DNA from: Myxococcota bacterium
GTDB lineage: Bacteria > Myxococcota_A > Polyangia > Nannocystales > Nannocystaceae
Assembly: GCA_039028615.1 (NCBI GenBank)
Contig: JBCCHT010000001.1
Location: 416,001-480,000, forward strand
DNA length: 64,000 nt
Reading direction: 5' to 3'
Made by a program: the position numbers and the translations under genes. Numbering within the stretch: the first letter of the stretch is position 1; each line of letters opens with the position of its first letter. The notes beneath the pieces are model-generated. The model made no database searches. It was not told where the DNA came from and saw nothing but the letters and a program-made list of their open reading frames with translations. Below, one piece after another: positions 476 through 2,338 of the stretch.

Positions 476-991
476 ATGATTACGTGCTCTGGTTGTTCGC
501 GTTTCGTTCGAACCGATGCGCGCCAGTGTCCTTTCTGCGAGACGCCCCTTCGCACCATGCCGGCCCCGATCACCGCGGGTCTGGCCAGCTTGCTGCTCGG
601 CCTGACGCTGAGCGGATGCGGAGACGACTCCTCGACGGCAGACGACGGCGCCGCCGCGAGCACGACCGACGTCTCGGCAGCCACCGCAGCCGAGACCCAA
701 AACCCGGGCATGACCACCACGCCCAACGCGACCTCGACCACCACCAACGAGCCCGACGCCGAAGCCAGCGTCGCGGCCTACGGTGGACCCGACGTCGACA
801 CCACGCCCAACGACACCGACGAGACGGCCGACGACGGCACCACGAGCATGAGCGACGGCGGCACCACGGGCGACAGCGGAGGCACGACCGGCGAAGGCTC
901 GGGCGACGGGATGGCGACCGACGGGATGGCGACCGAGGGCATGGCGACCGAAGGCATGCCCACCGGCGGCGGGATGCCGACCGGCGGCTAG
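476..991 (+). CDS. Zn-ribbon (CxxC...CPFC) lipoprotein-like protein with AYGGP motif; putative radical-SAM substrate
   Basis: CSGC-x10-CPFC, then hydrophobic stretch ending LSGC (lipobox-like), Thr/Asp-rich linker, single AAYGGP, GMATE/GMPTGG tail; convergent with rSAM gene. Confidence 0.75.
   Translation: MITCSGCSRFVRTDARQCPFCETPLRTMPAPITAGLASLLLGLTLSGCGDDSSTADDGAAASTTDVSAATAAETQNPGMTTTPNATSTTTNEPDAEASVAAYGGPDVDTTPNDTDETADDGTTSMSDGGTTGDSGGTTGEGSGDGMATDGMATEGMATEGMPTGGGMPTGG
908..988 (+). repeat. Short coding tandem repeats (GMATD/GMATE x3, GMPTGG x2)
   Basis: 15-18 bp units gg(g/c)atg(g/c)c(g/c)accg.. repeated five times at the 3' end of the 476-991 CDS. Confidence 0.7.
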
Positions 992-1003
992 CCCCGCCGC
1001 GAC

Positions 1004-2338
1004 TCAGTCCGTAGTTTCGATCGCCCGGCCGGCCCCGAAAGGCTCGGTCCGGCGGTCGACTCGTGGTTCGTCCACTCGTACCGGTCCCTCGCTTTCGCGC
1101 CGCTGCTCGTCCTTGGGCTCGCGAATCAGCCGAAACAGGCCGTTGGCGAAGGGCACGTCGGCCGCCCCGCGCACCGGCTCGATGCGCTCCCGCAGCCCCA
1201 TGCGATCCATCTCGAGCGCACGGTGGAGGCAATAGGGGTTGTTGCCCGGGCGCCCCATCAGCGGCTCGGAGGTCGCGGTGCAGCCCGACATGCAGGTCTC
1301 CGCGTAGTAGCACTCGCGGCAGTAGCCCCACAGGTCGTCGAGCGTGCGGTGCCGGGCGTAGCCGATCTCGGGCGAGCGCTCCCACAGCGCCCGCAAGCCG
1401 TGCTCGCGCCACGAGCCCCCGAGGTTGGTCGGACCACCGAGGCTCGGGCAGCTCTTGATCTGCCCGTTGCTCTCGATGCCCAGCGTGCGCACGCCCGCCT
1501 TGCACCCGGTGAAGAAGCGCCCGCCCGTCTGATGATGACGCAGGCGCTGCTCGATCGGGCCGAAGTACCCGACGTTGTTCGCCGGCCAAAGCTTGATGCC
1601 CAGCTCCTGGCAGCGGTCGACGACCGTCTCGATCTGCTCGTAGATCCCGATGAGCATGTGGGGCTGGACCAGCAGTTCCGCGTGGTCGGCCGCGTTGCCG
1701 TGCGCCATCGTGAACTGGATCTGCCACGCGTGAATGCCTTCGGCCGCCAACAGCTCCAGCAGCGGAACGAGCTCGGTCGCCGTGCGGCGATTGATCTGGG
1801 TATTGGACGCGACTGGTAGCCCTGCCGCCCGAGCGTTGCGCAACGCCGCGAACGCCCGTTGCCAGCTCCCTTCCCGGTTCCGCACGTGATCGTGGCTCGC
1901 CTCGAGCCCGTCGATCGACACCGAGACGCCCCGCAACCCCGCCTCTTTGGCCTGCTCGCAGCGCTCGGGGGTCAGCCCCCAGCCCCCCGTGGTCATGGTG
2001 ACCGACATGCCATGTTCCCGGCATGCCCGGACCACCTGCGGAAAGTCGTCGCGCAGGTAGGCTTCGCCGCCGATCAACACCACCTCGCGCACGCCCAGCT
2101 CCGCCATCTCGTCGACCAGGCGCAGACACTCGTCGGTATCGAGCTCATCCGGCCGGGCCCGCCCCGCCCGCGGACCACAGTGCAGGCACTTGTGATCGCA
2201 CAGCAGCGTGATCTCCCAGACCGCCAGCGTGGGCCGCGGTGCCTCGCCCTTGGCCAGCGGTAGCACCCGCCGGCTTCCCGGGTTCGGCAACGAAGACACG
2301 ACGGGCAGCCGTCGCCGTAGGTCGTCCTGCCCGCTCAT
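1004..2338 (-). CDS. Radical SAM/SPASM peptide/protein maturase, PlpX/splicease-like (TIGR03913-type)
   Basis: WEITLLCDHKCLHC (CxxxCxxC), GGE, SIDG; SPASM: GCKAG..GIESNGQIKSCPSL and CRECYYAETCMSGC...GRPGNNPYCLHRA. Confidence 0.85.
   Translation of the reverse strand: MSGQDDLRRRLPVVSSLPNPGSRRVLPLAKGEAPRPTLAVWEITLLCDHKCLHCGPRAGRARPDELDTDECLRLVDEMAELGVREVVLIGGEAYLRDDFPQVVRACREHGMSVTMTTGGWGLTPERCEQAKEAGLRGVSVSIDGLEASHDHVRNREGSWQRAFAALRNARAAGLPVASNTQINRRTATELVPLLELLAAEGIHAWQIQFTMAHGNAADHAELLVQPHMLIGIYEQIETVVDRCQELGIKLWPANNVGYFGPIEQRLRHHQTGGRFFTGCKAGVRTLGIESNGQIKSCPSLGGPTNLGGSWREHGLRALWERSPEIGYARHRTLDDLWGYCRECYYAETCMSGCTATSEPLMGRPGNNPYCLHRALEMDRMGLRERIEPVRGAADVPFANGLFRLIREPKDEQRRESEGPVRVDEPRVDRRTEPFGAGRAIETTD

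Follow-up and report, generated by a model that had tools for sequence, protein, structure and literature searches.

A probable two-component splicease system with a zinc-ribbon-led lipoprotein as predicted substrate in a Nannocystaceae genome

We describe a gene pair located at the beginning of a 64,000-nucleotide stretch of DNA (below, the window; G000:C1:416001-480000 in our numbering) from a Myxococcota bacterium of the family Nannocystaceae, whose genome (G000; assembly GCA_039028615.1) comprises 12.3 Mb. One gene codes for a radical S-adenosylmethionine (SAM)/SPASM enzyme of 444 amino acids (aa), the other one for a 171-aa protein with a four-cysteine zinc ribbon, a lipoprotein-type signal, and an acidic linker containing a single tyrosine. 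In our judgement, both proteins probably form a two-component splicease system of a Myxococcota type, which manages without a Y protein: the ribbon would dock onto the enzyme, a tyramine equivalent would be excised from the precursor, and the chain would be exported and lipidated, giving a ketoamide-bearing product. That the pair works like a binary splicease has a high likelihood. Splicease chemistry and its two-component logic are already known. New, as judged by sequence comparison and modelling, are a mobile ribbon with a defined predicted docking site, putative Y-A and Cys-Y-G sites, and a product whose predicted membrane anchor should make it isolable.

The two genes run tail to tail with a gap of 12 base pairs (bp), exactly as an earlier note on this DNA had described them (Table 1); its observations that the only tyrosine lies in A-Y-G-G-P (it is residue 102) and that the enzyme carries a set of C-terminal signature motifs were confirmed as well. 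The genome collection holds 103 confirmed relatives of the enzyme, the best 80 of which were considered; 65 of them form a Nannocystaceae-type set, in which several loci stem from the same genomes and are thus not independent. At 55 of these 65 loci a ribbon gene lies within 3 kb of the enzyme gene, in 54 cases with a Y[GA] motif, and the source genome as a whole contains only nine ribbon genes; the pairing is therefore far beyond chance. Five of these nine ribbon lipoproteins are encoded within 50 bp of an enzyme paralog and four are orphans; the enzyme itself occurs as six full paralogs plus fragments. The C42 paralog has no adjoining ribbon gene; it falls among enzymes that mostly have T-Y-A-G-P proteins as neighbours and may therefore serve two orphan T-Y-A-G-P lipoproteins in trans. 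Across the phylum (301 genomes), 41 of the 42 genomes with a leader match possess the enzyme, which is fragmented in the remaining one; the threshold for a match (E-value of 1e-6 or better) was chosen by us from the table.

The tyrosine motif was counted in 76 ribbon proteins, from which two spurious short hits had been dropped and which include one Sorangium protein. In these homologs, 116 of the 141 tyrosines of the mature regions are followed by glycine (73) or alanine (43). The pattern Y[GA]x[PA] occurs in 71 of the 76 proteins, compared with 3.4 on average and at most 10 in 1000 shuffles; the motif to which the earlier note had drawn attention is thus strongly conserved in homologous open reading frames (ORFs). 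YG itself is present in 47 proteins. In the source genome, all nine ribbon lipoproteins contain Y[GA][GA], versus 2 of 52 acidic lipoprotein-like ORFs that lack a ribbon and were selected by pattern. A phylum-wide survey added 54 further loci, chosen as best matches; of the resulting 66 distinct leaders, 63 are accompanied by YG. The partner is a member of an unannotated Myxococcota-wide family defined by the ribbon, a lipoprotein-type signal, an acidic linker, and a Y[GA]x[PA] site. The earlier note had overlooked the large size of this family, of which a genome holds several paralogs, the frequency of Y-A sites, and the fact that binary spliceases which lack a Y protein and act on protein substrates have already been published in outline, as can be gathered from the available portions of PMC11414181 and PMC10849128.

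Scored against NCBIfam, the enzyme reaches 414.6 bits with TIGR03913 and 408.1 bits with TIGR04103; the next family follows at 141 bits and TIGR04133 at 136.5 bits. For calibration, a Nostoc enzyme above the cut-off of TIGR04103 scores 414.5 bits on TIGR03913, and an Azospirillum enzyme above the cut-off of TIGR03913 scores 438.7 bits on TIGR04103. Because its scores equal the cross-scores of true members, the window enzyme stands as near to each family as the families stand to each other; its sequence identity to members of both is 42-43%. The match to TIGR03913 spans model positions 18-393 of 477, and the ribbon part of the model is absent from the window enzyme. The enzyme belongs to none of the three curated families tested (TIGR04103, TIGR03913, TIGR04133/TIGR04134). 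Our conclusions on phylogeny rest on a careful tree of 30 rows, which are 30 of the 64 rows used in an earlier quick tree. Here, the enzyme lies in a Nannocystaceae branch (support 100/99) inside a 23-row clade (100/100), which also holds nif11-class, GDL-class, and other myxobacterial enzymes; seven remoter SPASM proteins fall outside. Within the clade, the order of the myxobacterial, GDL, and nif11 branches has weak support (89/74, 81/87). Scores, cross-scores, and this clade agree in grouping the enzyme with the splicease-related families and not with other SPASM families. The family TIGR04103 is taken here to be equivalent to IPR026482. The link that the earlier note drew between the enzyme and spliceases is supported, and its labelling of PlpX-type enzymes as TIGR03913-related needs a small correction: according to the accessible part of PMC11002830, PlpX belongs to IPR026482 (nif11-class), and TIGR03913 is the GDL-type sister.

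Three features of the functional class of spliceases are found: the placement in the PlpX-family clade, where a family member stood in for PlpX, a radical SAM domain combined with the SPASM cysteines, and an adjoining substrate with a conserved X-Y-G, which is AYG in our case. The Pfam model SPASM gives 18.3 bits with the enzyme, which is under its cut-off of 21.5. The structure model of the enzyme has a predicted local distance difference test (pLDDT) value of 94.8. No splicease structure was found in the PDB; the best match by sequence is SkfB (E-value 1e-18), and a fold search returned SkfB, PqqE, and SuiB at 17-22% identity and no splicease. The close named homologs come from Myxococcota, mostly Nannocystaceae, the nearest cultured one being Paraliomyxa miuraensis (77%). 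The enzyme is present in 69 of 73 Nannocystaceae genomes and, at an E-value of 1e-70 or better, in 81 of the 301 genomes sampled phylum-wide. A seventh paralog of the source genome (G000:C80:11312-12851) is in fragments and interrupted by an unrelated ORF.

The 171-aa protein has at its head C4-x2-C7-x10-C18-P-F-C21, followed by a hydrophobic stretch (h-region) and L-S-G-C48. It contains one Tyr, four Arg, none of which lies beyond residue 26, and no Lys, and its tail is rich in Thr, Gly, Ala, and Asp. In 73 leaders, C4, C7, C18, P19, and C21 are invariant; the lipobox cysteine is kept in 71, and position -1 is G, A, or S in 71. Judged by pattern and conservation only, an h-region followed by a lipobox with a conserved cysteine marks the protein as a putative bacterial lipoprotein, and the families Lgt and LspA are present in the source genome. 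A methionine lies at most three residues before the first cysteine in 54 of the 73 leaders; only five have one in the 12 residues after CPxC. These comparisons argue for Met1 as the true start and for the ribbon as part of the protein. A start at Met28 was rejected: its position is not conserved. The Atlas record for the partner begins at residue 28, and an Atlas search with the partner gave no match of 0.9 or higher, the template modelling (TM) scores being 0.30 or less. DUF1843 did not match the partner, and no precursor of the TIGR03913 type (DUF1843 / Y-x10-GDL) is encoded next door. Neither a Nif11 precursor nor a PlpY gene was found at the locus, and one query, run without a positive control, found no PlpY-like gene in the source genome.

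The docking of the ribbon was modelled with the enzyme and partner residues 1-52, each supplied as an alignment, in the presence of Zn and one 4Fe-4S cluster. The score of the predicted complex was 0.84 (three runs), versus 0.00 for the best control; the mark set for this score is reached by 116 of 157 solved and by 2 of 215 mismatched pairs, counts that are only roughly applicable here. The runs share at least 32% of the contacts, and the pLDDT of the partner is at least 62. Confident contacts were predicted between ribbon residues 1, 3, 7-10, and 19 and enzyme residues 259-264, 275, 344-345, and 348; among these, each of F259, G260, P261, E263, Y344, and Y345 is conserved in 114-120 of 120 homologs. 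Two non-ribbon nif11-like enzymes, which are two sequences only, lack Tyr344 and Tyr345 of the predicted docking site. No confident contact between the h-region and the enzyme was predicted, which is no evidence against a contact. The complex model supports a binding of the ribbon to the enzyme.

Table 1. Features of the gene pair (positions in the window)
Feature	Position	Strand	Basis
Predicted substrate: Zn-ribbon-led lipoprotein precursor, 171 aa, sole Tyr = Tyr102	476..991	+	ORF call
Zinc ribbon C-x2-C-x10-C-P-F-C, predicted enzyme-docking (Y-equivalent) module	485..538	+	Conservation, homology, predicted complex
Hydrophobic h-region and lipobox L-S-G-C48, signal peptidase II type	569..619	+	By pattern
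Predicted modification site A101-Y102-G-G-P in acidic disordered linker	776..790	+	Homolog motif counts
Splicease-clade radical SAM/SPASM enzyme, 444 aa, without RRE	1004..2338	-	NCBIfam scores, tree, structure model
SPASM-type cysteines C279, C297, C340, C343, C349, C353, C370	1229..1504	-	Each conserved in 117-120 of 120 homologs
Predicted ribbon-docking loop F259-Q264 (with F275, Y344, Y345, T348)	1547..1564	-	Predicted interface
Radical SAM motif C47-x3-C51-x2-C54	2177..2200	-	Invariant in 120/120 homologs

Further evidence for the role of the ribbon comes from sister enzymes. When the window enzyme is aligned with family members, GDL-type enzymes are seen to have an additional C-terminal segment, which consists of a C-x2-C-x10-CP[HF]C ribbon and a helix. 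All 15 tails collected have a spacing of 10, the same as all 73 leaders; the set is not wholly independent, since 11 of the tails were found by pattern and the other four came from hits of the leader profile. The alignment of the leader profile with the profile of the enzyme tails gave an hhalign probability of 97.4. In a search of 146,299 six-frame ORFs of the source genome with a tails-only profile, eight of the nine leaders occupied ranks 1-8 and the ninth rank 10; the window's own partner protein was ranked first. At all 13 GDL-type loci with a tail-less enzyme, the start of a gene for a ribbon protein of about 65-70 aa lies 8 bp ahead of the enzyme stop, and the protein matches TIGR03913 positions 420-475. 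This standalone gene represents the split-off C-terminal part of TIGR03913 and is a candidate for a Y-equivalent; behind a Nostoc nif11-class enzyme, a small Cys-free gene occupies the same position, which is the place of plpY. The standalone gene coding for ribbon and helix is unannotated and occurs in Sphingomonadales and Thermoanaerobaculia (L066-L069, L071-L078, L080, e.g. L069:4151-4345).

In two further enzymes a ribbon with longer spacing lies at the N-terminus. These splicease-clade enzymes (L115:2680-4302 from a Tropicibacter plasmid, and P0124) carry an N-terminally fused leader that resembles the myxobacterial ones, and several of their neighbours, among them a phosphotransferase and a trypsin-like peptidase, have YG motifs. 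An AlphaFold2 model of the natural enzyme-ribbon fusion P0123 has a predicted TM-score of 0.86, with pLDDT values of 81-92 for ribbon and helix and a disordered linker; it fits a docked ribbon but gives no contacts and was not counted as evidence. The idea of the earlier note that the Zn ribbon acts as leader gains support from the ribbons fused to sister enzymes or encoded next to them and from the passed complex prediction. PlpY and the RhaA leader are activators that still work when fused to the C-terminus of the enzyme, as stated in a portion of PMC11414181; the ribbon occurs naturally in the same range of arrangements, with a different fold.

From these findings the following course of events is proposed. 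The precursor would be translated from Met1, and its N-terminal Zn ribbon would dock on the cytoplasmic enzyme at the GYFGPxE loop and the CYYA motif, as homology and the predicted complex suggest; in doing so, the ribbon would serve as tether or activator, a role which PlpY or the RhaA leader plays in characterised systems. As clade and motif suggest, the enzyme would then cut out a tyramine equivalent (C8H9NO, about 135.06 Da) at Ala101-Tyr102-Gly103, so that the disordered linker would acquire an alanine-derived alpha-keto-beta-amino acid. Modification should precede export, since radical SAM enzymes with their Fe-S clusters reside in the cytoplasm. Judging from the signal pattern, the modified chain would then be exported, lipidated at Cys48, and cut by signal peptidase II, the ribbon being discarded with the signal. 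The expected product is a membrane-tethered acidic polymer with one electrophilic ketoamide, by analogy most likely a bait-type inhibitor of Ser/Cys proteases: in Rheinheimera spliceotides, protease inhibition depends on the ketoamide (PMC11626197, in the section available).

Several points weigh against this proposal. At 10 of the 65 loci no ribbon gene adjoins the enzyme; three of these loci are cut by contig ends. Contrary to the published XYG rule, 26 of the 76 homologs possess only Y-A sites. In 14 of the 66 phylum-wide leaders, the lipobox cysteine directly precedes YG (X = Cys), which would put the modification on the residue expected to be lipidated. The enzyme stays below the cut-offs of TIGR03913 (591.75 bits; GDL motif) and of TIGR04103 (725 bits; nif11-class maturase 3, type I), and the tree was computed with a family member in place of PlpX, PcpX, and RhaX. 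The chemistry of radical SAM/SPASM enzymes is able to change within one clade. Generic Zn-ribbon models of Pfam match the short ribbon weakly. The standalone ribbon protein could not be aligned with the protein in the Y position of Nostoc; an equivalence to Y would therefore be positional and functional, not homologous.

The Nannocystaceae subclade might direct another radical reaction to tyrosine, i.e. a cross-link, a decarboxylation, or a backbone cleavage, at least at Y-A sites. The subclade is set apart by a well-supported branch, its enzyme remains below the family cut-offs, and Y-A-G-P sites dominate one subclade of 21 rows. However, close orthologs of the enzyme (77-82% identical; L002, L003, L004) adjoin YG, YA, or both, which points to one reaction tolerant at position +1, and the upstream residues in V-A-A-Y-G resemble proven sites listed in the part of the PMC11414181 supplement at hand. 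We regard a different chemistry as quite improbable. That an orphan radical SAM gene and the gene of an unrelated lipoprotein are neighbours by chance has a negligible probability. It is true that the genes are convergent and therefore not co-transcribed, and that a lone YG may turn up at random when a protein is rich in Gly (in shuffles, about 28 of the 76 proteins had Y[GA]), but the counts of neighbourhoods, motifs, and co-occurrence refute this explanation, and homologs occur in head-to-tail, convergent, and divergent arrangements.

The remaining alternatives concern the fate of the protein. Splicing may be correctly predicted and the end product may nevertheless be a short peptide, which is cut from the linker after export, so that the Sec signal and the lipid anchor would only provide the export route. 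In many homologs the site is repeated, with 2 to 6 copies set in low-complexity sequence that resembles spacers, and the final native products of spliceotide pathways are open according to the accessible text of PMC9811515. On the other hand, neither a protease nor a transporter gene was seen next to the pair, whose neighbours are not conserved, and many homologs run on into folded extracytoplasmic domains, as indicated by MopE-like repeats in the proteins of 13 of the 66 phylum-wide leaders, a Pfam match, and Cys-rich repeats. This outcome seems unlikely to us. Even less do we expect that the protein is no lipoprotein and that its hydrophobic segment serves as an uncleaved membrane anchor or as a helix binding the enzyme. 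Type II signals do not usually have a folded ribbon ahead of their h-region, a soluble helix comes after the ribbon in GDL systems, and the lipobox was assigned by pattern; yet [GAS]-Cys closes the h-region in 71 of the 73 leaders, and the segment has no confident enzyme contact in the model.

If the pair is a splicease system as proposed, its position among the known ones can be stated as follows. With PlpA/PlpX/PlpY and PcpAXY from Pleurocapsa (type I) it shares the enzyme clade (42% identity to the Nostoc member above the cut-off) and an X-Y-G in a flexible substrate; in contrast to these, it has a Zn-ribbon leader and a lipoprotein signal, and neither a Nif11 leader nor a separate Y gene was found. 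The binary spliceases RhaX/RhaA, RcsX, and RasX (types II, III, and V) likewise consist of two components, with the activator residing on the substrate's own leader (PMC11414181 and PMC11626197, in the passages available). In the former source, as far as accessible, these leaders are PlpY-like helices, whereas here a four-Cys ribbon is the predicted docking module and a lipobox is present in the substrate; the part of the supplement at hand contains the word 'zinc' 0 times. The same source states that all types beyond type I lack Y and that the leaders of types II, III, and V were aligned with PlpY, that of type IV not; this type IV class could be the one to which the window system belongs. 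The GDL-motif (DUF1843) systems of TIGR03913 are the nearest sister clade and have the same C-x2-C-x10-C-x2-C ribbon (model positions 420-475), but in them the ribbon is part of the enzyme or of a small overlapping gene, not of the substrate; their precursors are DUF1843 peptides of 55-75 aa that lack a signal, unlike the lipoprotein considered here. Some DUF1843 precursors (L112:2210-2923, L114:2293-2748) vary after the tyrosine (G, A, M), i.e. non-YG sites are not confined to myxobacteria. In the Bacteroidetes systems TIGR04133/TIGR04134, a radical SAM enzyme is combined with a putative lipoprotein, as in our case; the latter presumably has a YGxP motif. The window enzyme is no member, as its 136.5 bits compare with a cut-off of 425 bits, and TIGR04134 had no match in the source genome, while it was detected in a Bacteroides control.

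PlpX-like enzymes with YG-rich neighbours occur in 189 genera, and 27 pairs with distinct precursor classes have been confirmed, as parts of PMC10849128, PMC9811515, and PMC11002830 report with reference to Scott 2022. The literature searched contained no description of myxobacterial Zn-ribbon lipoprotein substrates; Scott 2022 may cover the class, so that a prior description is not excluded. The available portions of PMC10533398, PMC8326336, PMC11876861, and PMC10885120 hold nothing on a Zn-ribbon lipoprotein class. The native end products and roles of spliceotides are described as open in the accessible part of PMC9811515; a predicted lipid-anchored product, which could be fished from membranes, brings this question within reach of experiments in hosts that can be cultured (Nannocystis, Plesiocystis, Paraliomyxa). 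The ribbon would constitute a concrete, mutable docking site and would extend the activator-helix model, as outlined in the sections of PMC11414181 at hand, to a second, unrelated fold. With Y-A and Cys-Y-G sites, the known substrate rule would become broader, a point of relevance to protein tagging. As a wider and tentative conjecture, to which we give somewhat less than even credence, the four-Cys ribbon might be a mobile docking and activator module of a large splicease branch, which moves between the C-terminus of the enzyme, its N-terminus, a separate gene, and the substrate. Myxobacteria would have grafted it onto lipoprotein signals and thus turned dozens of ordinary surface lipoproteins into clients; the envelope of these predators would be coated with ribosomal ketoamide warheads, among them some at Tyr-Ala sites and some that are lipid-anchored ketoamide-Cys N-termini, and the 21-residue ribbon would serve as a portable backbone-editing tag for exported proteins. 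The literature consulted contains no counterpart to this conjecture.

Further observations concern the ribbon proteins and the surroundings of the pair. In two source-genome proteins (G000:C8:122961-123572 and C26:121445-121876), the lipobox cysteine is followed by Y-G, and the residue to be lipidated would become the ketoamide. Arrays of about ten or more ribbon-leader genes exist in G122 (C128 and C69; L145, L185-L188) and G258 (C333); in G122, both enzyme genes near these arrays are in pieces in the assembly. Ribbon leaders are also fused to larger lipoproteins with Cys-rich repeats (G000:C1:6674-7798, C2:294054-294836, L058, L060, L063), which have one F/I-Y-[GA] site before the folded part and would be full-size protein clients. 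The source genome contains four LspA-family genes (C52, C59, C62) and five Lgt-family genes (C2, C3, C37, C38, C59), which could permit a specialised processing of unusual lipoproteins, and at least seven other radical SAM genes within 57 kb of one contig (G000:C17:42857-99912), apparently a separate large cluster. In the window, the 3' part of an APH-family phosphotransferase gene (1-463, forward strand) ends 12 bp before the substrate gene. A tandem pair of ATPases with ArsA/Get3 fold (2378-4530, reverse strand), whose best matches are BagB and BagA, both below the cut-offs, ends 39 bp upstream of the enzyme gene on the same strand. The phosphotransferase and the BagA/BagB-like ATPases were considered as parts of the system and rejected, since among 188 loci they matched only loci of the source genome itself. 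Two paralogous TPR-like membrane proteins follow in tandem (4880-6945, forward strand, and 9561-12080, reverse strand), and beyond them lies an ORF that, by eye, reads like a Lon protease.

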